Positions 5,855 through 32,720 of a DNA stretch of 64,000 nt are shown here, piece by piece. Each line of letters begins with the position of its first letter. The first letter of the stretch is position 1. The notes below the pieces were generated by a model. It was not told the origin of the DNA, did not search any database, and worked only from the letters and a program-made list of their open reading frames with translations. The translations under genes and the position numbers were made by a program. Source of the stretch: an uncultured Candidatus Saccharibacteria bacterium (GTDB lineage Bacteria > Patescibacteriota > Minisyncoccia > Phycocordibacterales > CAIRYW01). The stretch covers positions 64,192 to 128,191 of the forward strand of contig CAYUPH010000003.1 of the NCBI GenBank assembly GCA_964446625.1, given 5' to 3'.

Positions 5855-5913
5855 AGCTAAAACTACAATAGCAATTAAAAAAAATAAATCAAACAATAAA
5901 AAAACCAGAGGGG

Positions 5914-6195: not shown

Positions 6196-6271
6196 ACTTA
6201 ATAAATAAAATCATACAGAATTCTAAGAAGCAAACATTTTCTTTTTCTGTTACTTTGCTAGACTATTAAAA

Positions 6272-7210
6272 ATGAAAAAAAATAAACAAAGTAAAAGGGT
6301 TTTGGTGTCAGGTTCGGTTGTGTACGACACTATTTTTAGTTTGCATGGAAATATTCAAGACCAAATAGTTCTCGAAAATGGAAAGCTAGGTCATCAGAAT
6401 CTTATGTTCACTGGAAAAGAAAAAAAAGTTTTCTTTGGTGGAACTGGAGGAAACATTGTCTACGGACTTTCTAAACTAGGTGTGCTTCCCTATCTTGTTT
6501 CTGCGGTGGGAAAAGATTTTGGAGAATACAAGGATTATTTGAAAGGTAAAGCGGAACTTAAAGTTTTGGAAGATAAAAGTGGATACACAAGTGTCTTCTA
6601 TGCTATGACTGACGAAGCGGGAGAGCAAATTGGAGTTTTCCAAACTGGCGTGTATGCAAAGAGGGTTGAAAAGCTCGCGCTTTCTTCCCTACTTTCTGCG
6701 ACAGAACTTTCTAAAGTTGAAGTGGGTATTTTTGCGGCAGGAACTGCGAAAAGCATTGCGTCCCAAATGACAGAACTTCGAAAAGTAAACAAGAACGCCA
6801 TTATTATTTTTGATCCGGGACAAATGCTTGGAATTGATTTTACAAAAAGTCTTCTCGAGAAAGTGCTCAAAGTCGCGGACATAGTAATTGTAAATGATGT
6901 AGAACAGAAAATTCTTGAAACAAAGTTTGGTTTTGGTTTCGAAAAAGTATTTAAAAAAGGAGTAAAGAAAATTGTTGTGACTGAGGGTTCTCTTGGAAGC
7001 TCGCTTTACACACATGGAGAAGGAAAAATTGAAAAAGTTTTTGTAAAAGCAAAAACTGTAAAAGTGGTGGATCCGACAGGTGCGGGCGATGCTTTTCGTG
7101 CTGGGTTTATAGATGCTCTCCTAAAAGGTAAAACAGAAAAACAAATGCTTGAAGCGGGAAATGCTCTTGGAGCAAAGTGTGTGCAAAAGTTCGGAGGACA
7201 AGGATACTAG
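6272..7210 (+). CDS. PfkB-family carbohydrate/nucleoside kinase (ribokinase/adenosine kinase-like)
   Basis: GG dipeptide region near N-terminus and PfkB signature 2 DPTGAGDAFRAGFIDALLKG near C-terminus. Confidence 0.8.
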   Translation: MKKNKQSKRVLVSGSVVYDTIFSLHGNIQDQIVLENGKLGHQNLMFTGKEKKVFFGGTGGNIVYGLSKLGVLPYLVSAVGKDFGEYKDYLKGKAELKVLEDKSGYTSVFYAMTDEAGEQIGVFQTGVYAKRVEKLALSSLLSATELSKVEVGIFAAGTAKSIASQMTELRKVNKNAIIIFDPGQMLGIDFTKSLLEKVLKVADIVIVNDVEQKILETKFGFGFEKVFKKGVKKIVVTEGSLGSSLYTHGEGKIEKVFVKAKTVKVVDPTGAGDAFRAGFIDALLKGKTEKQMLEAGNALGAKCVQKFGGQGY

Positions 7211-7233
7211 TTTTCTGTATACTTGGAAGTGGT

Positions 7234-7383
7234 ATGACACTTGAAGAAATAATAGCTACCCCTCCCCTTCATGATTCTGTCCGACCTGATCCGGACCAAG
7301 GTATCCTAAAGCGAATGGCAGCTGAAGAAGGTGCTTGGTCTGACCTTGGGGATATTCTTGATGAATACCCAATTATCGGCTAA
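7234..7383 (+). CDS. small hypothetical protein (49 aa from internal MTLEEII)
   Basis: Short ORF directly upstream of a strong terminator; acidic; weak support. Confidence 0.2.
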   Translation: MTLEEIIATPPLHDSVRPDPDQGILKRMAAEEGAWSDLGDILDEYPIIG

Positions 7384-7410
7384 TCCTCAGTAGAAAGTGA
7401 GGAAGATATG

Positions 7411-7439
7411 GCTGATGACTAACATCATCAGCTTTTTTT
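7411..7439 (+). terminator. Rho-independent terminator
   Basis: gctgatga-ctaaca-tcatcagc hairpin followed by TTTTTTT. Confidence 0.65.
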
Positions 7440-7444
7440 ATTCT

Positions 7445-7933
7445 CTACATCATCCGCAAAAGCGCCTCGGCTGCTTCGATACCTTTGTTCATCATGCCAG
7501 TTGAGCGCACGAGAGCCTGCTCTAGTGTGTCTACAGTTAAAATCGCATTTGCAATCGGAGTTTCTTCGGAGAGCATAACATCCATAATTCCTCTTGTAGA
7601 TTCGCCAGAGATAAAAACGTAGTGGTCGGTGTCACCCCGAATCACACACCCTACTGCAATGACGCCTAAAACTTTTTTTTCTTTAATTACTTTTTTTGCA
7701 CAAAGGGGAATTTCGAATGCTCCTGGCGCTTCGACTATGAAAATATTTTTTTCTTGAATCCCTGCTTCCAAAAGGGTTTTGTACGCTCCGTCTCGAAGTG
7801 GGTAAGTAATGTCACTGTTATACGCGGAAACGACAATCGCAACTTTAGTAGTTTTTTTGATTTGTTTCCCCCCACCTGTTTTCTCTTGTTTGCGATTCAT
7901 ATTTTCTTTTTTAGATATTAAAACTTTACTCAA
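7445..7933 (-). CDS. ribH: 6,7-dimethyl-8-ribityllumazine synthase
   Basis: KVAIVVSAYNSDIT...GAFEIP...GCVIRGDTDHYVFI motifs of lumazine synthase; lysine-rich N-terminal extension. Confidence 0.85.
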   Translation of the reverse strand: MSKVLISKKENMNRKQEKTGGGKQIKKTTKVAIVVSAYNSDITYPLRDGAYKTLLEAGIQEKNIFIVEAPGAFEIPLCAKKVIKEKKVLGVIAVGCVIRGDTDHYVFISGESTRGIMDVMLSEETPIANAILTVDTLEQALVRSTGMMNKGIEAAEALLRMM

Positions 7934-8516
7934 ACTTCTCCCCTAGCCTTTCTGCATACCTCGCGATTATATCCGTTTCTATGTTTAAAATGTCGCCCAC
8001 CTTCTTTTCGCCCAGAGTTGTATGCTCAAGTGTATACGGAATGAGGCTGACTTCAAAACGAGTTCCTTTTACTTTTGAAACAGTAAGCGATACGCCTGCG
8101 AGACAAATACTCCCTTTGTAGGCAATATACTTTGCTACACTACTATCTGTATTTAAAGTAAAAACAGTGCTCCCTTCCCCTTTTACTACTTTTTCAATAA
8201 CTCCGATTCCATCAATGTGTCCGTACACAAAATGTCCAGAGATTTTGTCTCCTGCCTTTAAGCTTTCTTCAAAATTAACCTCGCTTCCTGCAACGAGTGC
8301 GCCGAGCGTTGTTTTACCGAGAGTTTCGTTCATGTATTCTACGGTAAACTTATCATCCTCAAGGTTTATTATAGTTGAGCAAACTCCTTCAATTGAAACA
8401 CTCTCACCTTTCTCTAAATTTGCACCCTCTGGCAATGCAAAAGTCACCTTCTTATTTCCAAGCAGGTCTGTTGTTCCGAGTACTTTTGTTTTTGCACTTA
8501 TGATTCCAGTAAACAT
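7926..8516 (-). CDS. ribE: riboflavin synthase alpha subunit
   Basis: MFTGII N-terminus and duplicated lumazine-binding halves (GESVSIEGVCST / GSICLAGVSLTV). Confidence 0.85.
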   Translation of the reverse strand: MFTGIISAKTKVLGTTDLLGNKKVTFALPEGANLEKGESVSIEGVCSTIINLEDDKFTVEYMNETLGKTTLGALVAGSEVNFEESLKAGDKISGHFVYGHIDGIGVIEKVVKGEGSTVFTLNTDSSVAKYIAYKGSICLAGVSLTVSKVKGTRFEVSLIPYTLEHTTLGEKKVGDILNIETDIIARYAERLGEKFE

Positions 8517-8518
8517 GA

Positions 8519-8899
8519 TTAGCAGACAATCGGTCCTTCGTTCCAGTTTTTGTCCGACTTGTCGAGCTCAATTCTAATCATTTCAATGTCGTTTGCAATA
8601 AGCTCCTTTAGTTTCTCTGTATCAGCAATTTCAAAATCATCACGAATCTTTTCACAGATTTTTACGCAGATTTCTTTGCCGTAGAGCTCCCCTTCAAAGT
8701 CCAGAACATGCACTTCGATTACCGATGGGTTGTTTTTTGAAATATAAAGAGCTGCTTTGTGGTGTTCTTCTCCAAGTAGTGCGTACCCTGCGTAGATTCC
8801 AGGTTCCCCTGGATTTTGAAGCACAATATTTGCTGTTGGAAAGCCGATCTTTGTTGCTTCGCCTTTTCCTTTTATTACCTCGCCTTTGTGGGTTGTCAT
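8519..8899 (-). CDS. riboflavin kinase (stand-alone, no FAD synthetase domain)
   Basis: GFPTANI flavokinase motif; 126 aa. Confidence 0.7.
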   Translation of the reverse strand: MTTHKGEVIKGKGEATKIGFPTANIVLQNPGEPGIYAGYALLGEEHHKAALYISKNNPSVIEVHVLDFEGELYGKEICVKICEKIRDDFEIADTEKLKELIANDIEMIRIELDKSDKNWNEGPIVC

Positions 8900-8900
8900 A

Positions 8901-9437
8901 TTATTTTTTTCGCTGTGAATTTTTTAATACTTCTATATCTTTTTGAAGAAGTGAGAGCATTTCTTCAATTCGACTAATTGTGTCACTTTTTTGTTTTGCA
9001 TTTTCTTCATCGCTACCTTCCTCAATCTCCTCAACATCCTCTTGAATCTCATCAATGTCCTCCTGAATTTCGTCGACGTCCTCTTGAATCTCATCAATGT
9101 CTTCCTGGATTTCATCGACATTTTCTTCGATTTCTTCTACGTCTTCTTGGATTTCATCAATGTCTTCCTGAATTTCGTCGATATCTTTTCCTACCTCTTC
9201 GATTTCTTTTGTGTTTTGGTTTACTGAATACTGAATGAGTATAGAGAGGTAAATAGCCTCGAGGGAAACCAAGGTTGTAAGGAAAAGAAGTACTTGGTCT
9301 AAGTTAAACCCAAAAAGCGGAAGAACGAGACATAGTATAAAAAAAAGTGTATGAAGAATAAGTGAAGGTACTGAACCTACAGAGCGTGTCACTTTCTCCG
9401 CCAGTGTGTCTTCGGTTTTGAGTACTTTCTCTTTCAT
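8901..9437 (-). CDS. DUF1003-like two-TM membrane protein with long acidic heptad-repeat tail
   Basis: TM segments then LSILIQYSVNQNTKEIEE followed by (EIQEDID/EIEENVD)n repeats. Confidence 0.55.
   Translation of the reverse strand: MKEKVLKTEDTLAEKVTRSVGSVPSLILHTLFFILCLVLPLFGFNLDQVLLFLTTLVSLEAIYLSILIQYSVNQNTKEIEEVGKDIDEIQEDIDEIQEDVEEIEENVDEIQEDIDEIQEDVDEIQEDIDEIQEDVEEIEEGSDEENAKQKSDTISRIEEMLSLLQKDIEVLKNSQRKK
9017..9205. repeat. ~9 tandem 21-bp repeats inside CDS 8901..9437
   Basis: cctcttgaatctcatcaatgt / cctcctgaatttcgtcgacgt etc.; encodes acidic heptads; coding repeat, not CRISPR (no spacers). Confidence 0.7.
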
Positions 9438-9523
9438 ATGGCTATTCTAGCAAATAAACTTGAATTTAAAAACGATGACCTACTGTTTTTTGAGAATTTT
9501 CTGATTTCTGCTATAATCCTCGC

Positions 9524-9772
9524 GTGGAAGAAAACAATATTCCAAAGGAAAAAGAGGTAGAAAAGCCTATAAAAACAAAAGCAGAGCTTATCGCTTTTGC
9601 ATACGACCTCGGTTTTGCAATCATTCTTCCGCTTGCACTTCTCGGCTTTGGAGGCAGATACCTCGACCGTTCACTCGGAACTTCACCCATTTTCCTTCTT
9701 GCAGGACTTCTACTCTCGTTGGTTTCAACTGGAATTATTATTGTTAAAAAAGTAAAAAAATTTAGCCTTTAG
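9524..9772 (+). CDS. atpZ: ATP synthase protein I/AtpZ-like small membrane protein (GTG start)
   Basis: 82 aa, two TM helices with glycine-rich loop (LLGFGGRYLD), immediately upstream of atpB. Confidence 0.55.
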   Translation: MEENNIPKEKEVEKPIKTKAELIAFAYDLGFAIILPLALLGFGGRYLDRSLGTSPIFLLAGLLLSLVSTGIIIVKKVKKFSL

Positions 9773-9777
9773 AATTT

Positions 9778-10635
9778 ATGCATATATCAATCGCAGCAGA
9801 AACACTTTTTCATATCGGCGCTTTCCCTGTCACAAACAGCATGCTTATGGCATGGATTGTCGTTATCTTTCTTTCTGTAACAGTCTTTTTTGTTAGTCGA
9901 AATCCAAAGAAAGTTCCAGGACGGCTTCAAGCGCTTATGGAGCTTATTCTCGAGAAATTTGTTGATTTTATGCAAGTGTTTACTGGCGACAGAGCTCTTG
10001 TAAAAAAATATCTTCCAATTGTTGGAACAATCTTTTTCTTTGTTCTCTTTTCTAACTGGGCAGGAATTTTGCCTGGAGTTGGAACAATAGGTTTTTATGA
10101 AAAACATGAGGAGGAAGCGGTCAAAGAAGTTGTGGACATAGAAGGAGTAGAGGGAAACCCTGCTTCTCCTTCCGAAGTTCACGAAGCCGAAGCTCCTACT
10201 TCAGAGACTGCAGAGCATGAAAACGCTCCGCTTGTACCATTCTTTAGATCTGGATTTGCTGACCTCAACATGACGCTTGCGCTAGCGCTCATTGTTGTGA
10301 TTTCAACACACATCATTGGGTTTGTTTCAATTGGAGTTTCGCACCACATAGGAAAATTCTTACAAAATCCATTCAAAAAACCTATCGGCGCTTTCATTGG
10401 TTTTCTAGAGCTTATTGGTGAAGTTTCAAGAGTTGTCTCATTTTCTTTTAGGCTTTTTGGAAACCTGTTTGCAGGAGAGGTTCTTCTCATGATTATTTCT
10501 TCTCTTGTTCCCTATTTTATTCCGATTCCGTTTCTAGGGCTTGAAGTATTCGTAGGTTTTGTGCAAGCACTCATCTTCTCTACCCTTGCAATGACTTTTA
10601 TCGCAGCTTCAACGCAGCACCACGAGGAGCACTAA
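9778..10635 (+). CDS. atpB: F0F1 ATP synthase subunit a
   Basis: Conserved FRLFGNLFAGEVLL (essential Arg) region; contains unusual acidic ~55-aa insertion (EEEAVKEVVDIEGVEGNPASPSEVHEAEAPTSETAEHEN). Confidence 0.9.
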   Translation: MHISIAAETLFHIGAFPVTNSMLMAWIVVIFLSVTVFFVSRNPKKVPGRLQALMELILEKFVDFMQVFTGDRALVKKYLPIVGTIFFFVLFSNWAGILPGVGTIGFYEKHEEEAVKEVVDIEGVEGNPASPSEVHEAEAPTSETAEHENAPLVPFFRSGFADLNMTLALALIVVISTHIIGFVSIGVSHHIGKFLQNPFKKPIGAFIGFLELIGEVSRVVSFSFRLFGNLFAGEVLLMIISSLVPYFIPIPFLGLEVFVGFVQALIFSTLAMTFIAASTQHHEEH

Positions 10636-10666
10636 ATAAAATTAAATTTAGGTAGAAAAGTAACCG

Positions 10667-10694
10667 GCCGGCGTTCCTCTAGAGGAACGCCGGC
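10667..10694. terminator. perfect 28-bp GC palindrome just after atpB stop
   Basis: gccggcgttcctct|agaggaacgccggc; no clear T-tract, may be terminator/processing hairpin or part of the downstream structured element. Confidence 0.35.
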
Positions 10695-10699
10695 ACAAC

Positions 10700-11795
10700 C
10701 CACCACTGAAAAAACTTTCACTTTAATTTTTGCACGCTTTAATAAAACCGTGCAAGTGGAAAACGAAGTCAGCCCAGTCCCCCGTGTGGGGACTGGGCTG
10801 TGAGCTTTGTTGAATGGGGAATGGGAGCCGCCACCGTGTGTGGCGCTTAGAAGGGGTACGCTCGTCCATTGTATCCTCCTTCGAGGGACTGTGCTCCCAA
10901 TTCAACCAACGAGCTCTAATTAGAGTAATAACATAGATGTATTTACATGTCAATACGTAAACGAAATGAGCCCCGGCCTCCTGCTTGCGCAAGTGACCGG
11001 AGCTCTCCAGAGAGTATTTCGGCGCTAAGTAGGCGTAAAAGCCGGCAGCAGCCCTCTCTGGATTCGGTGAACAAGTTATGGTGTAACCTCCAACCACACC
11101 TTAACCCATCCACCAAAGTGAGAGGACGGAGAACCAAACTTTCCTAAACCAACGGATTGTTAAGTGTTGATTTGCCTAGTTCTCCGCCCAAAAGAGCGAA
11201 AATTGTGAAGTGATATTACTCACATTTTCGCTCTTTGTCAATATAAAATAAATGAGGAAGGTCCCGCCGGCACAGAGTGCTAGCGGGACCTTTTGTTAGC
11301 CACCCTGCTCCGGCGAATCCGACCCTTCGACTCGGTTTGGAGCATGAATGGCTCTACCTTTTGGTGGTTGCATGGCAACCTCTTTCGGCTAACCACCAAA
11401 TTGGGTGGCAGAGAAGCGCACGGCGCCTGATGAAACTCACCCGAGCCCAGCAGACAATTCCATTTTGCCCGCGCTTCTCCGCCAAATTTAAGGCCAAGGC
11501 GACGATTGATTTCCGAAAACCCGTCTAGTTGGGTTTATTTGCTGTTCGTCGCCTTGGCCAAAGCATGAAAACCGTTTATTAGCCTACTCCTTAAGTAAAA
11601 ATAGTCAAATGAAGATGGCCCGGCTGCAGCTGCAGCCGGGCCCCGATTCGAGCGTGCAAAAGCCCCGTTAAGCACCTCGATGTTCCGAGCGGCCAAGCGA
11701 ATGCACACAGGGCCCAGATACCCTGGTGCATTTCCGCTCGAAAGATTAAAAAGCCGCTAAAACTATACATTAAATATACTTAATGTCAAACAGTT
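10700..11795. ncRNA. candidate large structured non-coding element (unclassified) between atpB and atpE
   Basis: ~1.1 kb without convincing ORF, locally GC-rich in AT-rich context, dense in long perfect stems (cagcccagtcccc/ggggactgggctg; ggtcccgccggc...gccggcgggacc-like; ggccaaggcgacg/cgtcgccttggcc; gcccggctgcagctgcagccgggc; ttcgagcg/cgctcgaa; ttggtgg/ccaccaa enclosing ggttgcatggcaacc). Confidence 0.35.
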
Positions 11796-21651: not shown

Positions 21652-22920
21652 TTAAAACAAATCGTCTCCAGTGATACTTTCAACTCTTTTGTTGTAATTG
21701 ACAGATCGTTTTACAAAGAAGTCGAGGTGCTTTGTTGTCATGATTTCGTCGTTAAACCATTCAGTCTCCTCGAGAAGTTTCTCGTCAATTGTAAAGAGTT
21801 TCTTGAATCCAATTGCTGAAAGTGAGTTATTGAATCGGTTTTTGATGAACTCAAGAACTGTAGCTTTTGAAAGGAACGGAATCTCTCCTTTTTCAAAAAT
21901 CCAATCTACAATTGCCTGCTCTGCTGCAAATGCCTCGTTGCATAAATCGTACACAGACTGCTCGTACTCTTCTGTAAACCACTCTGGGTGTTCTGTTTTA
22001 ATAATTTTAAGAAGGTCGATACCAAAGAGTCCGTGAATTTGCTCTTCTTTTGAAGTCGCTTCAATAACATTCGACATTCCTCGGAAGAGTCCTTTGAACT
22101 TGTTGAAGGACATGATGATGAGGAATTGTGAAAACAGCGACACATGTTCAATAAACAAAGAAAAAAGAAGAAGTGTTCGAGAATAATCTTTGTGATGATC
22201 AGAATGTGCGTTTGCAATCGCCTTTTCAATATAGTTGATTCGGCTAATGATTGCAGGAACCTCTTTGATTTTTTCGAATTCAGCATTTAGTCCAAGGATT
22301 TCAAGAAGGTGCGCGTAGGCGTCTTGGTGACGCACTTCACTTTCTGCAAAAGTTGCTCCCACAGCACCAACTTCTGGCTTTGGAATTTTTTTGTAAATGT
22401 CTCCCCAAAAAGTTTTTACAGACACTTCTACTTGAGCAATTGCGAGCATTGCATTTTTGAGAGCGTTTTTCTCTGCTTCGCTTGTGTTGACGAGGTAATC
22501 GTGAATATCAGAAGTAAAATTAAACTCAGTGTGTAGCCAATATGAGTGACGAATTCCGTCTACATACTCCAGGAGCTCTGGGTACTCATAAGGCTTTAGT
22601 GCTAGTCGCTTCTTAAAGATGTCTCGCTTTCGAAGTTCTGCCTGTTTCTGTCTGTAGAGGATATACGCCTTTGCAGTCGCGTGTAGTCCTGAGTCCATGA
22701 GCGCAAATTCTACTTGATCCTGAACACCTTCAACTGTTGGTGTACTGTCTCCAAACTTTTCTTCAAGATTTTTGATGGCAAGGTCTGTAATTTCAGAAAT
22801 TTTTTGCTTTGAAGCTTCTTCTCCAGTTGCAACGCACGCTTTTCTAATAGCTTCTTCGATTCGAACTCGGTCGAATTCGACAATCGAACCATTTCTTTTT
22901 ATTACAAGTTGTATTGCCAT
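21652..22920 (-). CDS. nrdB: ribonucleotide reductase beta (R2) subunit with N-terminal ATP-cone domain
   Basis: N-terminus VIKRNGSIVEFDRVRIEEAIRKA...AKAYILYRQ (ATP-cone) fused to ferritin-like R2 core (iron ligands in ...EAIH.. / ..EEQIHG.. regions). Confidence 0.8.
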   Translation of the reverse strand: MAIQLVIKRNGSIVEFDRVRIEEAIRKACVATGEEASKQKISEITDLAIKNLEEKFGDSTPTVEGVQDQVEFALMDSGLHATAKAYILYRQKQAELRKRDIFKKRLALKPYEYPELLEYVDGIRHSYWLHTEFNFTSDIHDYLVNTSEAEKNALKNAMLAIAQVEVSVKTFWGDIYKKIPKPEVGAVGATFAESEVRHQDAYAHLLEILGLNAEFEKIKEVPAIISRINYIEKAIANAHSDHHKDYSRTLLLFSLFIEHVSLFSQFLIIMSFNKFKGLFRGMSNVIEATSKEEQIHGLFGIDLLKIIKTEHPEWFTEEYEQSVYDLCNEAFAAEQAIVDWIFEKGEIPFLSKATVLEFIKNRFNNSLSAIGFKKLFTIDEKLLEETEWFNDEIMTTKHLDFFVKRSVNYNKRVESITGDDLF

Positions 22921-24478: not shown

Positions 24479-24931
24479 TTAGGCTGCTGCGAGGAGCGGA
24501 GGTGGTTTGGAACCTCTGCTGTAGTCCATAAAGACCCGAATCCCTCTCTGCGCAAGTAGATGCAGGATACTCTCGGCGAGCTCAGGGACAGAAAATAGTG
24601 TAGACGGCCGATGAATAGTAACTGTCATCGATCCAGTTTTCCCTGTTTCGTAAACCGCATCTATCCACAGAAGCAGTTCGTCACACTTCCCCTTAACTAC
24701 TTGCAGGGGCTCCAACGGGTTGCGAGAAGACCTGTTTCCTAAGCCGGTCTCATTTATAATGATTCCGGTTGCGCTCCTAAGGTCCCTTCTTGCGAAAACA
24801 ACAGGAACATACAAATAGACTTGCTTTCCTGTGATTTGCTTATTCGGGAATTCTTCCGGCTCACAAAGACCCGAAAGTCTCACAAGGGTTTCGCGAGCTA
24901 AAAGCTCGATGGCTGTTGCTTGTTTCTTCAT
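24479..24931 (-). CDS. hypothetical protein, GC-rich, member of 3-gene paralog-like cluster
   Basis: 150 aa; GLCEPEEFP motif resembling FCxVxxxMPCxP of neighbours. Confidence 0.45.
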   Translation of the reverse strand: MKKQATAIELLARETLVRLSGLCEPEEFPNKQITGKQVYLYVPVVFARRDLRSATGIIINETGLGNRSSRNPLEPLQVVKGKCDELLLWIDAVYETGKTGSMTVTIHRPSTLFSVPELAESILHLLAQRGIRVFMDYSRGSKPPPLLAAA

Positions 24932-25010
24932 CTACCAAAATAATACAACATTTAGTATAAAAAGTAAACAAATAAAAAAACTCCTAGGAAACCCTAGGAG
25001 CCTAATTGTG

Positions 25011-25439
25011 TTATTTGCCCCAAAGCAGATTTGCTAGCTTCGGAGTAGGAACTAGAATGATATCCTCCTCTCCTTCCTGCCCTATCATTTGCATCTCCAC
25101 GAAGCCCTCTAGGACCAGCCTCATGAAGCCGTGTGAAAGAGCAAGAAAGTCATCAATCCCCAATTCCACAAGCGGGATAGCTGCATGATGGTCAACTTCT
25201 TTTCCGAGCGCACCTTCCCTCCACTGGAGCTCCAGGTGTCTCAAGAAAGTTGTCACAAGAATCCCTACCCACCTTCCCTTGTCACAGGAGAAGTGAACTA
25301 GCTCTTCTGCTATGTAACATGCCTCCTCTGATAGTGTGGCGTGTGGACGAGGAATCTTGCGTCCAGCAAGTTTTTTGGGCTTGCAAGGCATTTTTGACAG
25401 CACTTGGCAAAAGCCGTCAGCAATTAAAGGATTTGCCAT
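25011..25439 (-). CDS. hypothetical protein, GC-rich paralog B
   Basis: 142 aa; GFCQVLSKMPCKP ... LVPTPKLANLL, paralogous to 25507..25911 product. Confidence 0.5.
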   Translation of the reverse strand: MANPLIADGFCQVLSKMPCKPKKLAGRKIPRPHATLSEEACYIAEELVHFSCDKGRWVGILVTTFLRHLELQWREGALGKEVDHHAAIPLVELGIDDFLALSHGFMRLVLEGFVEMQMIGQEGEEDIILVPTPKLANLLWGK

Positions 25440-25506
25440 AAAGAACAGGCGCTATTTTACAATATTTTTGCGAGATTTCAATAAAAAATCCCCAGGCGTT
25501 GGGGAG

Positions 25507-25911
25507 TTATGTGAGAGCTGCTTGCTGAAGTAGAGTCCCCACAAGTTTGGCAGTGGGAAAGTAGAAGACTCTACCCTCAAGGAATGATAGTTCTACCCAC
25601 CCTTCCCTTGTAAGTGTAATCAGTTGAAGTTCAACGATGACACCTTCGGCTTGACTTCGTGAATCTTTGAAGAGATGTTCTGCTGAAACTCCTACCCAGA
25701 ACCCCTGAGCCCCGGAGTTGGATAGTAGTCGAACTACTGCTACAACTCCAGGTATTGCACAGGCAAGGATAGTTCTCTCCAAATCTTTGCCGAGGATGTC
25801 TTGAGGGGTGCAGGGCATTTCTTCTGCAACAGTGCAGAAGTCTCCGCCCAGATAGGAATGATTTGTCATAAAGAGCGTTTGAACTCTACAACACTTTTGA
25901 GAGGATTTCAA
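25507..25911 (-). CDS. hypothetical protein, GC-rich paralog C (possible roadblock/LC7-like)
   Basis: GDFCTVAEEMPCTP ... IPGVVAVVRLLSNSGAQGFWVG ... YFPTAKLVGTLL; true start may be internal MTNHSY. Confidence 0.5.
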   Translation of the reverse strand: MKSSQKCCRVQTLFMTNHSYLGGDFCTVAEEMPCTPQDILGKDLERTILACAIPGVVAVVRLLSNSGAQGFWVGVSAEHLFKDSRSQAEGVIVELQLITLTREGWVELSFLEGRVFYFPTAKLVGTLLQQAALT

Positions 25912-26238
25912 TTACTCGTCTCTGTTTTCTCTTTCCTCCATTTCTCGGTAGCAAATTTCTTTATAGCCAGTGTTGCATATGTCGAGTATTTCGCTCTCAG
26001 AAAATCCGGAGATTTTATAAGCTGACTCATTATTTTCATCCATAAGTGCAACCGTGTATGTTCCATCTTCTTCCCTTTTTAAACCATAGAGGCTCACCCA
26101 CCCAATACCAATTCCCTCTTTGATTTCAGGTACTGTTTTTAAATCTGGTGGAGTTTCATCAAAAGTGCCTCTAGGAAAAAAGTAAGTTTCTAGTAGTTCT
26201 TCTATTTTACTTCGGTGTTCAGGTTCTTTTTCGCTCAT
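25912..26238 (-). CDS. hypothetical acidic protein (108 aa)
   Basis: Intact ORF, AT-rich codon usage like host. Confidence 0.4.
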   Translation of the reverse strand: MSEKEPEHRSKIEELLETYFFPRGTFDETPPDLKTVPEIKEGIGIGWVSLYGLKREEDGTYTVALMDENNESAYKISGFSESEILDICNTGYKEICYREMEERENRDE

Positions 26239-26340
26239 GTTTGTATAGTAGCATGAAAGTTTTAGCTAAAACAAAAGCCGCCTTGTGACGGGCTTTTGTT
26301 TTCTATAAAAGGAAACTGTGGTGAAAATTTAGGACAAATA

Positions 26341-26559
26341 AACTAATCGACACCTAAACTTTTTTTAACTCTCGCAATCTCTTCTGCGTTTGTTTCTCCT
26401 AATTCTTCTAGTCTCCTTCTATCTTTTTCTAAATCTTCTTCATCACCTGGTGAAAGTTCTTCTCCATAAACCCTTGGAGCATCGGTAGTAGCTATTCTTT
26501 TTATTAAAATCTCTACTTCGCCCCAAGACCTATCTGGCTTATTAAAATAAGCTGCTGGA
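26341..26559 (-). pseudogene. 3' gene remnant (72-codon C-terminal fragment without start codon)
   Basis: Minus-strand frame reads ...NPAAYFNKPDRSWGEVEILIKRIATTDAPRVYGEELSPGDEEDLEKDRRRLEELGETNAEEIARVKKSLGVD* but upstream in-frame stop and no Met; lies between terminator-like repeat and defence island. Confidence 0.35.
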
Positions 26560-26738
26560 TTTTATTATAGAGTCTCCAGACAATGTCTACTATTAGGACT
26601 TCTTTGATCCAATGCAGAAATATATATTTCTTACGTTGTGTTGATGAATGGATACAAAAAATAGTATTGTCGAATTTTATATTTAGATATGGTTTAACTT
26701 AATATAATACGGTAAGTTAATGAATACAGTACCTGATA

Positions 26739-28622
26739 TTAAGATTGCCATTTATCCAAGAGATTAATAGTTTGACTTACGGGCTGATTTTTTCTATTTG
26801 AAATTTTACCAACTTTCATTACAACTGGGATTTGAGCAAGCAAGCCAGCAAGAATACATGTACCAGTTGCTAGGTTTGGAATTGAATCAGCAGATACCTT
26901 ATCCAAATAGGCAATTGTTTTTTCAACAGCCAATAAATCATTATTATTAATAAGTCTGTGTAGAAAATAATTATGAAGTTGTGAAATGATTGTCGGAGAT
27001 ATATCTGAAGGTCTTTGACTTGAAATAGTAAGGAATGTACCGAACTTTCTTCCTTCTTTAATAATCTCCTCAAATGTTTCCAATCTGTAATCTTTCCATT
27101 GCTCACTCTCACGTTGAGAACTACCAGATAGTATATTGTGAGCTTCATCAATAATTATATGTAGCGAATTTTCCTTATTATTACTAGATTTTTTAGTATC
27201 ATAAAGCTCCTTACAAATAAGTAGAGGTAGCATTTTTCTAATATCCAAGTTTACATCCTTTAGGGATATAATAGTAAGATTTTTAACAAACCTTTCTCTT
27301 CCTTGCACTGAAATAACCTTTTCCAAATCAAGAACCCTTTTTTCCATTCGCTTGATTAATGGAGAAAGATGTTCACGGTTTGAAAAACCTCTAATCATTT
27401 CATCATAATATTTTATAATAATTCTGACTCCAATTTTCTTAATACCCGATAATAATGAAACATCAATAGTTTCAATTGAATTAATGGTGTCTTCGATTTT
27501 TACAGCAAATGTTGGCGAATCACTATAGATTTTATCTGATAGGCCAGACTTTAGGTAAAAACTAATATTCTCATTGCCACCAAATAAATTCCCTTTAAAA
27601 TAATCTCCGGCTAATTTAAGGTCATTATTATCCAAAAAAGAAGCTAATTCATAAAGTAAATCTACAGTTAGTGACCTATCAATATTTTTTCCACTAATTG
27701 AAGTCGCAGCTTTTATTTTCTCTATAATCAACCCTTTAAATGATTCATCAGTATTTATTCTAGATTCTATGTAATAATCTTTTATTGCCCTATTTATAAA
27801 TGGAATCTGAGTCTTTTCTGTAGCTTCAAGAAAGATTGACCAGAAACTTACATCTTTTAAGGTCTCCTTTTTTATAGGAAACCTATCATCTCCCTCATCT
27901 GTGCTAGTTGAAAGTTTATATACATTTTTATATTTTTTTTCAATTATCACATCATCGTCAGCATATTCGCCATTAAAATCAATCATAAAAAACTTTGCTT
28001 TTGACTTAAAACTGGCATTGTCTTTAAATTTCTTAAACAATTCTCTAAATAATTTTGCCAATGTGTATGATTTTCCACTTCCTGTGTTTCCAAAAATTCC
28101 GATATGACTAGCAAATAAACTATTAATACCTAAATCAATTCTCTGCCCATCATCGTAAGCTAATGTACCAACCTCGATTCTCTCATCTCCTTTTTGTATA
28201 AAATTGTGGATTTCTTCAAACTCCTCCTTGCGTAATAAAAAACACTTATTATCAATAAGGGGTAATTCCTTAATACCTCTGTAAAATGAACCGTCCTCAA
28301 TAAAGCCGAGTATTTTGACGTTTAAAATTCTATTTATCTTTTCTTTATTACTCTTATAACTTGTTTTAAGATAGTCCCTATCTTCAGTGATTGACTCTCC
28401 TTCAATTTTTCCAACCATCTCTAAAAAACCTTTTTTTATTTTAATGTATCCACCCACAAAAATATTTTGGATTATGTCTCCTTTATATAAAACTGAAGAA
28501 GTATTTTTTCCCTTATCAACTTTAATTTTAATTGATTGCCCCTCAACAGCAAAAACTACCCCAATTCTAAATATTGAATTATCAACAATATGTGTTCCGG
28601 TATTATTTTCCAGTATTTTCAT
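26739..28622 (-). CDS. herA: HerA-like (FtsK/HerA superfamily, DUF87) ATPase, partner of SIR2 in SIR2-HerA defence system
   Basis: 627 aa; N-terminal HAS-barrel-like region, Walker A GIFGNTGSGKSYTLAKL, Walker B LHIIIDEAHNIL; 6 nt downstream of SIR2 gene. Confidence 0.8.
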   Translation of the reverse strand: MKILENNTGTHIVDNSIFRIGVVFAVEGQSIKIKVDKGKNTSSVLYKGDIIQNIFVGGYIKIKKGFLEMVGKIEGESITEDRDYLKTSYKSNKEKINRILNVKILGFIEDGSFYRGIKELPLIDNKCFLLRKEEFEEIHNFIQKGDERIEVGTLAYDDGQRIDLGINSLFASHIGIFGNTGSGKSYTLAKLFRELFKKFKDNASFKSKAKFFMIDFNGEYADDDVIIEKKYKNVYKLSTSTDEGDDRFPIKKETLKDVSFWSIFLEATEKTQIPFINRAIKDYYIESRINTDESFKGLIIEKIKAATSISGKNIDRSLTVDLLYELASFLDNNDLKLAGDYFKGNLFGGNENISFYLKSGLSDKIYSDSPTFAVKIEDTINSIETIDVSLLSGIKKIGVRIIIKYYDEMIRGFSNREHLSPLIKRMEKRVLDLEKVISVQGRERFVKNLTIISLKDVNLDIRKMLPLLICKELYDTKKSSNNKENSLHIIIDEAHNILSGSSQRESEQWKDYRLETFEEIIKEGRKFGTFLTISSQRPSDISPTIISQLHNYFLHRLINNNDLLAVEKTIAYLDKVSADSIPNLATGTCILAGLLAQIPVVMKVGKISNRKNQPVSQTINLLDKWQS

Positions 28623-28628
28623 TTATGT

Positions 28629-29675
28629 CTATACAACTTCTTCAACAAGGTCATTTTGACCAATAATCGGACCAAAAATATCTTTATTTAATGTTTCAAA
28701 ATTATATTTCCTTCCATCTTCTGGTACCACAATTTTAATATTTTTATTTTTTGCTTCGTTTTCCATTTTCTCAAAAATTACCGATTTGCTTCCATGTGCA
28801 AATATGTATATTTTTAATGTTGGATTTGATGCGGCCACCCGAGTGGTCATATCCCTAATATGTTCATCGGCTAATGAAGATCCAATAACAAACAATACAC
28901 TATTTTCTTTTTCTAATTCATTTGAATATATCCTCAATAAGTCATAATAGTACTGTTGAAGAAGTGTGGTTTCATATTTAGCCTTCGTCGGATTCACGAT
29001 AACAAGCTTCTTATAGTATTTATCGAATTCATCACCATCTATCTTGTCAGCAACATCTCTAACATTCTGTAGATTCTTGTCTAATGAGATTACAGCCTCA
29101 TTTCCTATCTCATCAAACTTCCAAGTTAATGATCCGTGAATTTTAAGTATATTAAATACGGGTATTTCAGATGTGTTTTCATAATGAAGACTTTTCATAA
29201 AATATGATTTTTTAAAATTACCTAGATTGAATGTTGGATTAAATCTACCATTGAATCCATCATTGAATTCTATCCCTGTCCCTTCCAACGCCTTTTCAGA
29301 AAAAATATCTATATTTGTCGTAAATATATTTACTTGTTTAGTTAGAATAGAATTTTCTCTTTTTAGAACCAAATTATTTAATATTTTGTAAAAATTCGTA
29401 TAATTAGACATAACATAGTCTTTGTCTACTTCTAAAACATCATCCAATACCTTAATATTTCCTAACATAACTTTATTAAAATACTCTTTTTTCTTACTCA
29501 AGATTTCTTCACTTGTTTTAGATGTATCAGATAAAAAGAGCTCGATATCATTAAGAGTATCAAGAAAAGGCTTTGAAAGACCCGCACCTATCAAAAAGTT
29601 AATATTTGCACTGTCAATTGTTTTCTTTATATCTCTGAGAAGCGGTGTGTAATTAGACATATGTTGATTATGCAA
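28629..29675 (-). CDS. SIR2-family (DUF4020/SIR2_2-like) NAD+-utilising protein
   Basis: 348 aa; NINFLIGAGLSKPF Rossmann/NAD motif, TTNIDIF (Asn), KIHGSLTW (catalytic His), VLFVIGSSL C-terminal motif. Confidence 0.8.
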   Translation of the reverse strand: MHNQHMSNYTPLLRDIKKTIDSANINFLIGAGLSKPFLDTLNDIELFLSDTSKTSEEILSKKKEYFNKVMLGNIKVLDDVLEVDKDYVMSNYTNFYKILNNLVLKRENSILTKQVNIFTTNIDIFSEKALEGTGIEFNDGFNGRFNPTFNLGNFKKSYFMKSLHYENTSEIPVFNILKIHGSLTWKFDEIGNEAVISLDKNLQNVRDVADKIDGDEFDKYYKKLVIVNPTKAKYETTLLQQYYYDLLRIYSNELEKENSVLFVIGSSLADEHIRDMTTRVAASNPTLKIYIFAHGSKSVIFEKMENEAKNKNIKIVVPEDGRKYNFETLNKDIFGPIIGQNDLVEEVV

Positions 29676-29832
29676 TATTTTAAGTTTTTTTCAATCTTAC
29701 CGTATTTACTGGCTTGCCAGTCCAAACTACTTTTATGCATAGTACGATTTTATTCAAAAGCATATTATTATATATGTACAATTGAATAAGTAAGTAGCCT
29801 AAACTAAAAATCATAAAACTTTTTGCATGGTG

Positions 29833-29863
29833 AAAATTAAGTCTTGAAGAGACTTAATTTTTT
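29833..29863. terminator. AT-rich 10-bp hairpin between tRNA region and SIR2 promoter region
   Basis: aattaagtct-tgaag-agacttaatt followed by TTTTT. Confidence 0.35.
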
Positions 29864-29990
29864 AGTTAAAACTTATAAAAACTAGATAATTCCAGACCCC
29901 TAGCGGAATTTCTCCCTCGACTCAAGACTCGTCAGCCACTCGTCTTGGTCTGGGCACCAGCTCACTTGTTTTTACTGCTGTAAAAACATA

Positions 29991-30046
29991 GTTCCGCTGT
30001 TCGAATCCGCACGCAAGCAAAGTAGTTTGCTTGCTTAGGGTCCACC
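29991..30046 (+). other. tRNA-Ala 3'-half-like fragment in inverted orientation (T-arm-like + acceptor 3' strand)
   Basis: ccgctgTTCGAATCCgc ... ttagggtccacc mirrors AGCGGTTCGAATCCGCTAGGGTCCACC of adjacent tRNA-Ala but with 24-nt hairpin insert; cannot fold as tRNA. Confidence 0.4.
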
Positions 30047-30049
30047 GGA

Positions 30050-30076
30050 AAAACAAAAGCCGCCTTGTGGCGGACT
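30050..30076 (-). terminator. Rho-independent terminator after tRNA-Ala
   Basis: minus strand GTCCGCC-ACAA-GGCGGC followed by TTTTGTTTTT. Confidence 0.6.
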
Positions 30077-30091
30077 TAAGTTTTTCTACGG

Positions 30092-30164
30092 TGGACCCTA
30101 GCGGATTCGAACCGCTGACCTCCTCAGTGCAAATGAGGCGCTCTACCAACTAAGCTAAGGGCCC
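30092..30164 (-). tRNA. tRNA-Ala (anticodon UGC)
   Basis: GGGCCCTTAGCTTAGTTGGTAGAGCGCCTCATTTGCACTGAGGAGGTCAGCGGTTCGAATCCGCTAGGGTCCA; cloverleaf folds, G3:U70 Ala identity pair, GTTCGAATC T-loop, CC encoded. Confidence 0.9.
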
Positions 30165-30200
30165 TTGTATCCAATTGTAACATAACAGAGTCCTTAGTTT

Positions 30201-30258
30201 CCTTCATTTGCACAAATGAGTCGGCTAAAATCTTCTTTGCCAACTAAGCTAAGGGCCC
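30201..30258 (-). pseudogene. degenerate partial copy of tRNA-Ala 5' half
   Basis: 19-nt exact duplicate GGGCCCTTAGCTTAGTTGG (acceptor + D-arm) plus CTCATTTGtGCA anticodon-loop-like piece, remainder diverged. Confidence 0.5.
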
Positions 30259-30412
30259 GTTTTAATACAATTAAGATTCTATATGATTCCTCCTTTTTTC
30301 GCAAGAATCGGGGTTTTGCCCTCAGAGCCTTCCCTACTTATACACACTCGAGCCTTTGAATAGAGGGGTGCCTTGATATAATTAGTCTATTATTGGGTAA
30401 TAAATTATAAAC

Positions 30413-30781
30413 ATGAAGAAATTTTTACTTTTGACTCTCCTACCTTCTATGGCATTCGCCCAGGATATGGCCGGAGAACCTGCTTCAGCGGGGCCAGTGA
30501 CTTTTGCTGGTAGTTATACACTTTGGATTGCAATTATTATTGGATTCATTGCCGCGTTTGTGACATTTAGATACGCAATGCAAATGAAAGGATCGGCTGT
30601 CGGCGGTGTCCTTTCTCTTTTTGGATGGGGAATGTTTACTGTCGTTCTTGGATTTCTTTCAGTAGCTGTGGCGTGGGCGTCAGCACCAACACAAAAGATT
30701 GTTCACGATCTTTTGTTTATTGTTGGTTACCTTATGCTTCTTGCAGGAGCAGGACGAGTGCGAAAGTTTAGCGCTCAGTAG
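30413..30781 (+). CDS. small membrane protein with signal peptide and 3 TM helices
   Basis: MKKFLLLTLLPSMAFAQD signal-like N-terminus, hydrophobic helices. Confidence 0.55.
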   Translation: MKKFLLLTLLPSMAFAQDMAGEPASAGPVTFAGSYTLWIAIIIGFIAAFVTFRYAMQMKGSAVGGVLSLFGWGMFTVVLGFLSVAVAWASAPTQKIVHDLLFIVGYLMLLAGAGRVRKFSAQ

Positions 30782-30795
30782 TTTTTCTAAACCTT

Positions 30796-30829
30796 AGCCC
30801 CGCCTCTTCTTTTGAGGCGGGGCTTTTGA
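30796..30829 (+). terminator. Rho-independent terminator
   Basis: agccccgcctc-ttcttttga-gaggcggggct then TTTTG. Confidence 0.7.
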
Positions 30830-30848
30830 TATACTTTACTAAACTTCT

Positions 30849-32720
30849 ATGAGTTTTTTTAAATTCTTTTCTTCGGCTAATCACCAAAAGAGACAACTTC
30901 AAACAAATGAAATTGATTCGCTCTTTTCGTATTTAAAAAGACTAATAAACAGAGAGGATCTTGCACAAGGAATTATTGAGCAATACCAAAAAGTAAAATT
31001 CCTCGACAAATCAGCGCAGCCACTCGCCTATACAAAAGCATATATTCTCTTTGAGGACTTCATTACTTCACACAAACCACTCGTCGTTAAACGAGAATTT
31101 ACAAAAGATTCGCTCCGAGCCGATATTGCTGGCTCGCAGGATGTAAATCTGCTCCCTATAGAGCTTGCGCTTCTCTTTTTTGAAGAAAAGAAAAAGCTTT
31201 CTACTTTTTTTAGAGAAAACCTTCGGCCTCTTGAGAGGTATTTGATTAACACTTTTGGTACAGAGCGCCTCAAAGTGCTGACAGACAAAATCAACTCAAT
31301 TGTGAGTATTAATCTCAAAGTGTCCGAAGGCGGACTCGACTTCTTTGAGCTTGAAAATTCGATCAAAAATGATCCGACAGTCACAACAGGAAGCATTGTG
31401 ACCGATTTTAAAACAATTTATAACGCTTTTTATTTTGAAATCCGCGAATATCTGGGAGAAACGGTAGCACTAAACCTTTATAGTGGCGTGTACGCATCGA
31501 TTAAAGACACTTACGGCTTTGACCTTCTGTCACGATTTCTTGAACTTATGCCTCTCGAAATTCAGGAGAAAGAGAAAATTTCACTCCTTTCGCGAAAACA
31601 ATTGGAGGAAGCGGTATACAAGAGAACAGAAGAGCTTGCGTCCGAGAAGGGTCGCGTCGAGGAAAAGGTAAAAGAAAGAACATTTGAGCTAACTCTCGAA
31701 AAAGAAAAGCTCGATATTGTAACAGAAAACATGCTGGAAGGTTCAATACTTCTAAACGAAAGTTTTGATGTTATTTTCACAAACGAAAAAGCACGAAAGA
31801 TTCTTGCTTTTACAAAAGAAACGAGCGAAAAGGCTCTCCTGTATTTTCAGCAAGCCACAAAAGTAGATGCAGTAGAGAAACTCAAGTCAGAAAATGAAAA
31901 AGAAAAGATTACTGAAGTAAACATTGCCGACAAAATCTACGAAATTACTTTTGGTACGATAAAAAATGGAAACAGAATAAAAAACTACCTTGTGTGGCTT
32001 CGAGACATTACACAGTTCAAACTCCTCGAAGTAGCAAAAAGCGAATTTGTGTCTGTGGCAGCGCACCAACTCCGTACTCCCCTTTCTGGAAACAAATGGA
32101 TTCTCCACATGCTTGCAAAAGGAGAAATAGGAACGCTTACAGTTGAGCAAAAAAGCTTTATTATGAAAGCGTACGAAAGTAACGAGCGTATGATTACTCT
32201 AGTAAACGACCTTCTAAACGCTGAGCGGATTGATTCAAACGAAACTGAATACAAAATGGTTCCCGTACAGATTTTTGACCTTATTGAAAACATTCTCCTT
32301 GAACTTAAGCCGAAAATCGAAAAAGGAAACCTCAAGATCATAAAAGAAAAAGGTGGTGTTCCTCCTGTCTCAGCAGACGGAGAGAAAATGCGACTTGTTT
32401 TCCAGAATTTGCTTGAAAACGCAGTCAAATATACAATGAGTGGAGGTGCTATCTCCATTTCAGGCGAGGCTGAGGACGGCTTTGTAAAAGTGCGAATTGC
32501 TGACACAGGTATTGGTATACCAGTAGAGCAACAAGGCAACATTTTCAAGCGTTTCTACCGAGCAACAAATGCAGTAAAAATTCAAACAGATGGTTCTGGT
32601 CTCGGGCTCTTTCTCGTAAAAACAGTAGTAGAAAGACACGGCGGAGCTGTGTGGTTTGAAAGTACAGAAGGCAAAGGCACTGTTTTCTTTGTTAAGTTAC
32701 CAATTTTACAAAAAAAGTAA
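30849..32720 (+). CDS. sensor histidine kinase (PAS + HisKA + HATPase_c), cytoplasmic
   Basis: H-box AAHQLRTPLS, PAS-like LEGSILLNESFDVIFTNEKARKIL, G1/G2 boxes (DTGIGIP, GSGLGL). Confidence 0.85.
   Translation: MSFFKFFSSANHQKRQLQTNEIDSLFSYLKRLINREDLAQGIIEQYQKVKFLDKSAQPLAYTKAYILFEDFITSHKPLVVKREFTKDSLRADIAGSQDVNLLPIELALLFFEEKKKLSTFFRENLRPLERYLINTFGTERLKVLTDKINSIVSINLKVSEGGLDFFELENSIKNDPTVTTGSIVTDFKTIYNAFYFEIREYLGETVALNLYSGVYASIKDTYGFDLLSRFLELMPLEIQEKEKISLLSRKQLEEAVYKRTEELASEKGRVEEKVKERTFELTLEKEKLDIVTENMLEGSILLNESFDVIFTNEKARKILAFTKETSEKALLYFQQATKVDAVEKLKSENEKEKITEVNIADKIYEITFGTIKNGNRIKNYLVWLRDITQFKLLEVAKSEFVSVAAHQLRTPLSGNKWILHMLAKGEIGTLTVEQKSFIMKAYESNERMITLVNDLLNAERIDSNETEYKMVPVQIFDLIENILLELKPKIEKGNLKIIKEKGGVPPVSADGEKMRLVFQNLLENAVKYTMSGGAISISGEAEDGFVKVRIADTGIGIPVEQQGNIFKRFYRATNAVKIQTDGSGLGLFLVKTVVERHGGAVWFESTEGKGTVFFVKLPILQKK

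Follow-up and report, generated by a model that had tools for sequence, protein, structure and literature searches.

A pair of genes on the minus strand of a 64,000-nt stretch of contig CAYUPH010000003.1 (assembly GCA_964446625.1; the whole stretch is referred to here as the window) encodes the two components of a SIR2-HerA system, namely a SIR2-family putative effector expected to hydrolyze nicotinamide adenine dinucleotide (an NAD+ hydrolase, or NADase) and a HerA-family hexameric ATPase. The SIR2 gene (28629–29675) and the HerA gene (26739–28622; 627 aa) are co-oriented and separated by a spacer of only 6 nt (28623–28628). Translation of SIR2 from the TTG codon at 29675 gives 348 aa; the ATG at 29660, which gives 343 aa, is probably the likelier start and is adopted here because the gene callers applied to public copies of the contig use it, and the five extra N-terminal residues of the longer form are without support in homologues. 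In the 348-aa numbering, SIR2 carries the motifs GAGLS (residues 30–34), TTNID (119–123), KIHGS (178–182), and GSSLAD (265–270), with the catalytic Asn121 encoded at 29315–29313 and the catalytic His180 at 29138–29136; in the 343-aa numbering the catalytic pair is Asn116/His175. HerA consists of an N-terminal β-barrel (approximately residues 19–115) followed by a RecA-like core that contains the Walker A motif GNTGSGKS (178–185; Lys184 codon at 28073–28071), the Walker B motif IIIDEAH (489–495; Asp492/Glu493 codons at 27149–27144), and the sequence SSQRPS (534–539), the IDFNGEY and SQRP motifs being invariant.

Both genes lie within an AT-rich islet, the core of which (approximately 26560–29880, about 3.3 kb) holds SIR2, HerA, and short non-coding ends only and has a GC content of about 0.30 vs. 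about 0.40 in its flanks. Measured over the island as a whole, GC content is 0.306, whereas elsewhere in the window it is 0.399; the two genes themselves have a GC content of 0.29–0.30 and a GC content at third codon positions (GC3) of 0.22–0.24, compared with a GC3 of 0.33–0.37 for the host. The best promoter-like site upstream of SIR2 (29667–29694, minus strand) consists of TTGAAA, a 16-nt spacer, and CATAAT, and its end is 7 nt from the ATG at 29660. If it is real, the SIR2 mRNA would have almost no leader, and translation from the TTG at 29675 would be ruled out; in this AT-rich DNA, sites resembling promoters were not enriched relative to shuffled sequences, and the site is a lead only.

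Family Assignment of the Two Proteins

Both proteins scored above the Pfam gathering cut-offs, SIR2 with the SIR2_2 family (2.9e-13) and HerA with the DUF87/HerA central domain (6.6e-18), and both were matched over their full length by PADLOC models, SIR2 by PDLC04080 (E-value 3.8e-60; residues 15–331 of 348) and HerA by PDLC04097 (E-value 5.2e-177; residues 16–626 of 627). The defense HerA model scored 588 bits, vs. 72 bits for the repair HerA and less than 16 bits for ATPases of the type IV and type VII secretion systems (T4SS/T7SS); matches of HerA to the FtsK, TrwB, TraB, and EccC models were marginal beside its HerA matches. When the proteins were compared with sequences of solved structures in the PDB, their best matches were two chains of one and the same complex, the Sir2-HerA system of Staphylococcus aureus (SaSir2-HerA; SIR2 to 8yhx_G, 3e-12; HerA to 8yho_A, 6e-32), followed by the Escherichia coli Nezha complex (8j4u, 8su9) and then by the Paenibacillus complex (8w9l, 8wld). 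The two proteins belong to SIR2 and HerA families that are specifically associated with each other.

Catalytic Residues and Predicted Structures

The catalytic and nucleotide-binding residues are intact in both proteins. NADase activity of SaSir2 depends on residues N226 and H287, and the H287A substitution abolishes it (PMC11514289); in the HMMER alignment, the Asn and His of the window protein (within TTN and IHGS) fall exactly on these two positions. Among 74 aligned homologues, all of them sir2 genes taken from directly upstream of herA in reference loci, Asn116, Asp118, and His175 (343-aa numbering) are 100% conserved. SIR2 contains no cysteine at all and therefore cannot form a Zn ribbon of the CobB type. 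In HerA, K184, D215 (within IDFNGEY), D492/E493, and Q536-R537-P538 are invariant among 35 homologues.

AlphaFold2 models were built from an alignment of 40 sequences for SIR2 (mean predicted local distance difference test score, pLDDT, 81.8; predicted template modeling score, pTM, 0.85) and of 35 sequences for HerA (pLDDT 73.7). In Foldseek searches with the SIR2 model, the top 38 PDB matches were all SIR2 chains of SIR2-HerA complexes (drawn from 8yhx, 8uae, 8sub, 8su9, 8wld, 8j4u, and 8sxx), with the highest TM-score, 0.69, to EcSir2; ThsA, DSR2, KomC, and Avs5 ranked after these chains, and no housekeeping sirtuin was found near the top. The HerA model matched SaHerA first (8yhx_A; 1.4e-22), along its whole length, followed by other defense HerAs and then by archaeal HerA. 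Right after the strand that bears the catalytic His, the SIR2 model contains a β-hairpin (residues 180–185/188–193; pLDDT about 78–85). An extra hairpin in the Rossmann domain sets apart the Sir2 proteins of Sir2-HerA systems and is needed for assembly of the ring (Zhen et al.; PMC11514289), and the predicted hairpin is, as far as the model can be followed, its counterpart.

A sequence-only reading of this DNA had named two minus-strand genes 6 nt apart and interpreted them as a SIR2-HerA anti-phage module. Its gene coordinates and motifs were found as it gave them, and the HerA/FtsK-type ATPase with a barrel-like N-terminus that it described is recovered in the PADLOC match, the β-barrel, and the Walker A and B motifs. 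The profile searches that it proposed returned significant Pfam matches (SIR2_2, DUF87) and very strong PADLOC matches for both proteins; the Asn and His that it picked out as catalytic are those aligned to SaSir2 and invariant among paired homologues. It had also pointed to a CobB-like sirtuin with a Zn ribbon and to a conjugative ATPase as outcomes that would speak against the module, and here the missing cysteines, the absence of any deacetylase among the top fold matches, and the negligible FtsK, TrwB, and TraB matches compared with those to HerA all favor SIR2-HerA.

Linkage, Selection, and Distribution

Among 185,579 species-representative genomes, 80 loci were found with relatives of HerA at 44–83% identity, which span Patescibacteria lineages (15 of the 80), Proteobacteria, Bacteroidota, Acidobacteriota, Actinomycetota, and others; a SIR2 homologue stands immediately upstream of HerA, on the same strand, in every one of them (80/80). 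Database searches returned more than 6,700 matches to HerA and more than 2,600 to SIR2, the nearest SIR2-HerA pairs coming from metagenome-assembled genomes (MAGs) of Parcubacteria. For three orthologous pairs, nonsynonymous divergence (dN) was 0.20–0.25 for SIR2 and 0.11–0.18 for HerA with synonymous sites (dS) saturated, which permits only the qualitative statement that dN is far below dS; because dN is low while dS is saturated, the comparison points to strong purifying selection acting on SIR2 and HerA alike. The window copy is 100% identical in assemblies of several independent samples. One further allele (L004; Logan SRR6837555), corresponding to window positions 29156–29222, encodes a SIR2 with three clustered substitutions, G147S, Y160*, and F169I.

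The gene pair moves between genomes, often within defense islands or integrative and conjugative elements. One relative lies beside a type III restriction-modification system (L101), another within an element that carries TraG/TrwB-like ATPases, an AAA_15 protein, and a large serine recombinase (L102), and a third adjoins a methylase, GmrSD, and a nuclease of the SNase type (L103). Relatives at 40–46% identity are borne by about 149 plasmids, where they are annotated as "SIR2 family protein" and "ATP-binding protein," with homologues on enterobacterial plasmids at 40% identity. No close relative was found in 50,697 phage records, and IMG/VR held a single relative, at 46% identity; PHROG families exist for both SIR2 and HerA.

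Structure of the Islet and Its tRNA-Ala(TGC) Border

An intact tRNA-Ala(TGC) gene (30090–30164, minus strand; ARAGORN; Rfam tRNA, 71.2 bits) lies on the same strand as SIR2 and about 415–430 nt upstream of it, and is a probable integration hotspot immediately upstream of the islet. Directly after the tRNA gene, an intrinsic terminator hairpin forms the proximal copy (30050–30084, minus strand) of a 35-nt direct repeat, the distal copy of which (26268–26302, minus strand) is an intrinsic terminator about 450 nt after HerA. The two copies, 3,782 bp apart, are identical at 31/35 positions (89%) and include a perfect 20-mer that occurs only at these two sites in the window, with 0 expected by chance; the distal copy is probably where transcription of SIR2-HerA stops and where the imported segment has its far border. 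Between the HerA stop codon and the distal repeat is a stretch of 72 open codons without a start codon (26346–26561, minus strand; ending in DAPRVYGEELSPGDEEDLEKDRRRLEELGETNAEEIARVKKSLGVD before its stop), for which the fetched loci contained no homologue and Pfam gave no match, and which is probably the remnant of lost cargo or of a flanking gene.

Further copies of parts of the tRNA gene lie between it and the AT-rich core. An inverted copy of the 3′ half of tRNA-Ala, split by a hairpin of 20–22 nt, occupies 29990–30053 (minus strand), and at 29891–29908 (minus strand), exactly at the transition in GC content, the tRNA 3′ end recurs as a degenerate direct copy. The latter (TTCCGCTAGGGGTCTGGA vs. 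ATCCGCTAGGG-TCCACC) resembles the scar of an attachment (att) site; it was spotted by direct reading, since a gapless search allowing three mismatches passed over it because of one indel, and it aligns with a clearer 20-nt copy in a related locus, L016, described below. The 3′ half of the tRNA, the terminator, and the inverted copy together form a long imperfect palindrome with a side hairpin (29985–30125, minus strand), for which folding as single-stranded DNA gave a free energy of −55.5 kcal/mol (z-score −13.4). A palindrome of the same architecture in L016 (6615–6752) has a divergent but co-varying sequence (−48.2; z-score −12.4). The palindrome could be a recombination site resembling attB or an element of read-through or processing; a tmRNA or other known RNA was considered for the GC-rich segment between the tRNA gene and SIR2 and rejected, as ARAGORN and Rfam find only the tRNA.

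Upstream of the tRNA gene, a 24-nt direct copy of the tRNA-Ala 5′ end (30235–30258; 92% identity) lies 94 nt away and is accompanied by an inverted match to the anticodon-arm region (30204–30220); both are further rearrangement scars at tRNA-Ala. Two contigs of a strain about 95% identical to window positions 30135–31111 (L014 and L015; Logan SRR35931355 and SRR35931351) end inside the tRNA gene and have a different sequence of about 140 nt between it and the gene for a 122-aa membrane protein, which points to strain-level variability at the hotspot.

Comparative Evidence for Probable Acquisition at tRNA-Ala(TGC)

In a Parcubacteria MAG (locus L016/L021), the gene pair also lies just 3′ of tRNA-Ala(TGC), with SIR2 71% and HerA 83% identical to the window proteins, and in an islet with a GC content of 0.34 in a host of 0.52. 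The order of elements is as in the window: tRNA gene, terminator, inverted tRNA half with hairpin, and direct 20-nt copy of the tRNA end. Backbone proteins of the two genomes are less alike than these islet proteins (UvrA 67%, UvrB 64%, Ddl 52%, and UvrC 43% identity), so that plain vertical descent of the islet is disfavored. The L016 pair is in addition closely flanked by a 37-nt direct repeat (6871–6907 and 10002–10038; 76% identity; GTATTGGT...GGGAGGTTCTAAT); because this repeat differs from that of the window, from which it is absent, it suggests that the cassette moved by more than one route.

An apparently intact 10.5-kb element at tRNA-Ala(TGC) was found in another locus, L020 (ENA ERZ27247837 k141_1082008, 905–11490), where perfect 20-nt copies of the tRNA 3′ end (961–980 and 11471–11490) lie 10,510 bp apart and enclose a large serine recombinase, a Prim-Pol/NrS-1-like polymerase, a DUF3267 protein, SIR2-HerA, and two unknown ORFs (open reading frames). 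This element has all the features of a tRNA-targeted island, with both repeats of the tRNA 3′ end and a recombinase; its HerA is 75% identical to that of the window, and it is a plausible vehicle for the SIR2-HerA lineage of the window. A 27-nt block common to the L016 junction and the right end of L020 (85% identity, E-value 1e-5), together with collinear short blocks, hints that their att arms are of common ancestry.

The sequence-only reading had taken the AT-rich segment as a sign of horizontal acquisition and placed it immediately 3′ of tRNA-Ala. Its AT-richness is borne out by the composition given above, and acquisition is further favored by the flanking repeats, by association with the tRNA in independent genomes, and by the greater similarity of island than of backbone proteins. 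The placement needs amendment: the tRNA gene is nearby and on the same strand, but it does not abut the AT-rich core, the two being separated by about 200 nt of repeats that are GC-rich and derived from the tRNA.

Comparison with Known Systems

SaSir2-HerA (8YHX/8YHO; PMC11514289) is the best match of both proteins in sequence and in fold and has the same gene order. The two systems share the aligned Asn and His, the hairpin after the His strand, the N-terminal β-barrel of HerA, a RecA core with DxxGEY and SQRPS motifs, and a short SIR2 C-terminus. They differ in that their identity is only about 20%, in that the window SIR2 has 343 aa vs. 428 aa in SaSir2, with a smaller cap domain, in that the window HerA has 627 aa vs. 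562 aa in SaHerA, with a larger helical insertion at approximately residues 250–440, and in that the host is a bacterium of the candidate phyla radiation (CPR) rather than a Firmicute. The E. coli SIR2-HerA/Nezha systems (8J4U, 8SU9, and 8UAE) and the E. coli systems of types I–III (PMC13434337) likewise combine a SIR2 NADase with a HerA ATPase in two genes and would lead to the same abortive-infection outcome as the window locus; unlike them, the window proteins show only 15–19% identity and fall far short of the NCBIfam equivalogs built on E. coli systems. Like type III HerA (K188/D218), the window HerA has a Lys in Walker A that is followed, about 30 residues downstream, by a conserved Asp, the two being candidates only for equivalent residues. 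The complex of Paenibacillus sp. 453MF (8W9L, 8WLD; PMC11472057) matches both subunits at the level of fold, with 17–18% identity, and PsHerA has 696 aa and a distinctive C-terminal extension, compared with 627 aa in the window.

The DUF4297-HerA systems (8ZIQ, 9C1M, and 8XAU) and archaeal HerA-NurA have a homologous HerA scaffold, whereas the partner in the window is a SIR2 NADase, neither a DUF4297/Cap4-like nuclease nor NurA. Thoeris ThsA, DSR2, Avs5, KomC, and the SIR2 proteins associated with prokaryotic Argonaute (pAgo) have the same SIR2 NADase fold and Asn/His chemistry and rank lower in fold and hidden Markov model (HMM) searches; none of their sensors (SLOG, tail-tube sensor, STAND, or pAgo) is found at the window locus.

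Proposed Mechanism and Alternative Explanations

The locus is very probably a two-gene SIR2-HerA anti-phage defense operon on a small islet that was acquired horizontally, has no integrase, and lies beside tRNA-Ala(TGC) in the genome of a member of the Patescibacteria. By homology with solved complexes (PMC11514289, PMC11472057), HerA would form a hexamer that docks its N-terminal β-barrels into the SIR2 ring and relieves SIR2 autoinhibition, and in the resting state the NADase would be held off; SIR2 would then cleave NAD+ into ADP-ribose (ADPR) and nicotinamide, HerA would add ATPase activity and possibly DNA nicking or translocation, and the collapse of NAD+ would arrest the infected cell and abort phage replication. 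In E. coli type III, phage proteins resembling single-stranded DNA-binding protein (SSB) trigger the complex, and DNA ends made by the HerA nickase (D218) lead to consumption of ATP, which lifts a checkpoint imposed on the NADase by ATP binding (K188; PMC13434337). A comparable gating is possible in the window HerA, in which K184 and D215 have the same spacing. The islet itself would probably have arrived by way of a tRNA-Ala-targeting integrative element like that of L020, its mobility genes having been lost later.

Several observations weigh against this reading. Hydrolysis of NAD+, assembly of the complex, and protection against phage are each inferred by analogy with characterized homologues (those of S. 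aureus and Paenibacillus and the Nezha and type III systems of E. coli), and identity to the solved homologues is only about 15–21% in structural alignments. The NCBIfam models SIR2_antiphage (NF042942; 77.8 bits vs. a cut-off of 500) and HerA_antiphage (NF042943 and NF042944; 130.7 and 122.2 bits vs. cut-offs of 800 and 850) were not reached; since these equivalog cut-offs are missed so widely, the locus is, as judged from profile scores, a SIR2-HerA subfamily separate from the E. coli-type lineages on which they are based, and its stoichiometry, trigger, and nickase activity may differ from those of E. coli-type systems. The sequence-only reading had considered sizes of about 350 and 630 aa to match the known system; the ORF lengths stand, but SIR2, at 343 aa, is about 40–85 aa shorter than its characterized counterparts (381–428 aa), with a reduced cap domain, the deficit falling between the GxG loop and the catalytic Asn (about 90 vs. 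about 180 residues). Confidence in the models is low for SIR2 residues 131–170 and for the HerA C-terminus (554–627), and the premature stop of the L004 allele, known from one metagenomic allele, lies upstream of the catalytic His and reflects either a subpopulation that is null for SIR2, as an escape from toxicity, or a mistake in assembly. As to acquisition, the 35-nt repeat sits outside the AT-rich core and excludes the tRNA 3′ end, and no recombinase or integrase was found in the window, which leaves the integration model circumstantial. No empty site was found either, as all site-spanning contigs that encode the exact flanking 108-aa and 122-aa proteins carry the islet; a metagenome pattern search gave 0 matches to an island-free allele and also 0 to its control, a pattern for the distal junction as it is when occupied, the collection being one without the locus.

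One alternative retains the same proteins and changes their output. HerA would act mainly by nicking or degrading DNA and consuming ATP, NAD+ hydrolysis being secondary or a gate, or else the pair would chiefly stabilize the islet, as a device for addiction or for competition between elements. The type III system, in which defense needs the HerA nickase residue D218 and the NADase is gated through the binding of ATP (K188; PMC13434337), lends the first form some credit, as do the window K184 and invariant D215 at the same spacing and the Paenibacillus complex, which activates NADase, ATPase, helicase, and nuclease activities (PMC11472057); the second form draws on the travel of the module on mobile elements. 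Yet D215 is only a candidate equivalent of type III D218, SIR2 catalytic residues are required in all characterized systems and invariant in the window lineage, and no sequence feature points to an addiction role, so that this explanation, in both forms together, appears rather unlikely.

That the module was acquired and has since become non-functional in its host is far less probable still. Both ORFs are full length, with all conserved catalytic residues intact, the sequence is identical in independent assemblies from several samples, dN is far below dS relative to orthologues, and a terminator is placed after the operon; these points outweigh the missing mobility genes, the startless ORF remnant downstream, the interrupted L004 allele, and the lack of a convincing Shine-Dalgarno sequence or promoter, promoter-like sites not exceeding chance. 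Barely conceivable is a housekeeping pair unrelated to defense, made up of a CobB-like deacetylase and either a DNA-repair HerA (as in NurA/HerA) or a conjugative or FtsK-type translocase. Its traces are weak matches to archaeal HerA and to FtsK/TrwB/TraB models, HerA-NurA structures lower in the HerA fold list (rank 26), and a Pfam SIR2_2 match that by itself is not defense-specific, to be set against a SIR2 without Cys and hence without a Zn ribbon, top PDB fold matches that include no housekeeping sirtuin, the absence of a NurA gene adjacent to HerA, the wide gap between the score of the defense HerA model and those of repair HerA and secretion ATPases, and the foreign composition, mobility, and strict SIR2 pairing of the genes.

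Host and Neighboring Genes

The ATP synthase β subunit (AtpD) encoded in the window has as its closest named relatives, at 78–90% identity, exclusively proteins of Patescibacteria/Paceibacterota/Taylorbacteria/Uhrbacteria/Brennerbacteria, which places the host, a bacterium with a tiny genome, on the evidence of this protein, in the Patescibacteria/Paceibacterota (Parcubacteria; CPR). The defense systems recognized in Patescibacteria genomes are very few in number, few phages of this group are known, and its genetics is limited (PMC12366544). A full-text literature search returned nothing that links Patescibacteria defense systems with SIR2; by database matches, the SIR2-HerA module is not rare in CPR MAGs.

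Just outside the islet, four small co-oriented ORFs (24479–26238, minus strand) encode proteins of 150, 142, 134/120, and 108 aa; GC3 is 0.39–0.48 in three of them, above that of host genes, and the 134-aa protein is a distant paralogue of the 142-aa one (26% identity, E-value 1e-7). These ORFs, the 122-aa membrane protein, and the 72-codon remnant were considered as a third component of the system and rejected, as they have no Pfam, PADLOC, or PHROG match and are not conserved beside SIR2-HerA. Farther along, the small subunit of ribonucleotide reductase (21652–22920, minus strand) carries an N-terminal ATP-cone (Pfam ATP-cone and Ribonuc_red_sm in the public copy), a domain that is more usual on the large subunit.

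Significance

Two wider readings, which do not exclude each other, are jointly regarded as improbable. The palindrome, 130–140 nt long and present in two divergent Parcubacteria that each have a SIR2-HerA islet, could be an undescribed recombination site for integrase-less defense islets; if so, such islets would be captured or mobilized in trans at tRNA-Ala in CPR bacteria. Purifying selection has also retained an NAD+-depleting abortive-infection system in an obligate epibiont whose metabolism is minimal, and SIR2-HerA may therefore work differently there, for example by protecting the pair of epibiont and host or by relying on the nuclease or ATPase output of HerA instead of a collapse of NAD+.

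SIR2-HerA is already a known system, characterized in structure and biochemistry in several species, and the subfamily found here is covered by PADLOC models and has thousands of relatives, so that the locus leaves the understanding of SIR2-HerA function unchanged; a reading of the raw sequence at the level of motifs had named the system correctly. The interest of the locus is mild and lies in its Patescibacteria host, in a minimal integrase-less islet at a recurrent tRNA-Ala site, and in the conserved palindrome of tRNA halves. With it, the Patescibacteria, a group with few reported defense systems (PMC12366544), gain a well-supported example of an NADase system of the abortive-infection kind, and the locus shows a SIR2-HerA lineage in circulation among CPR lineages and ordinary bacteria by way of small elements that target tRNA-Ala.

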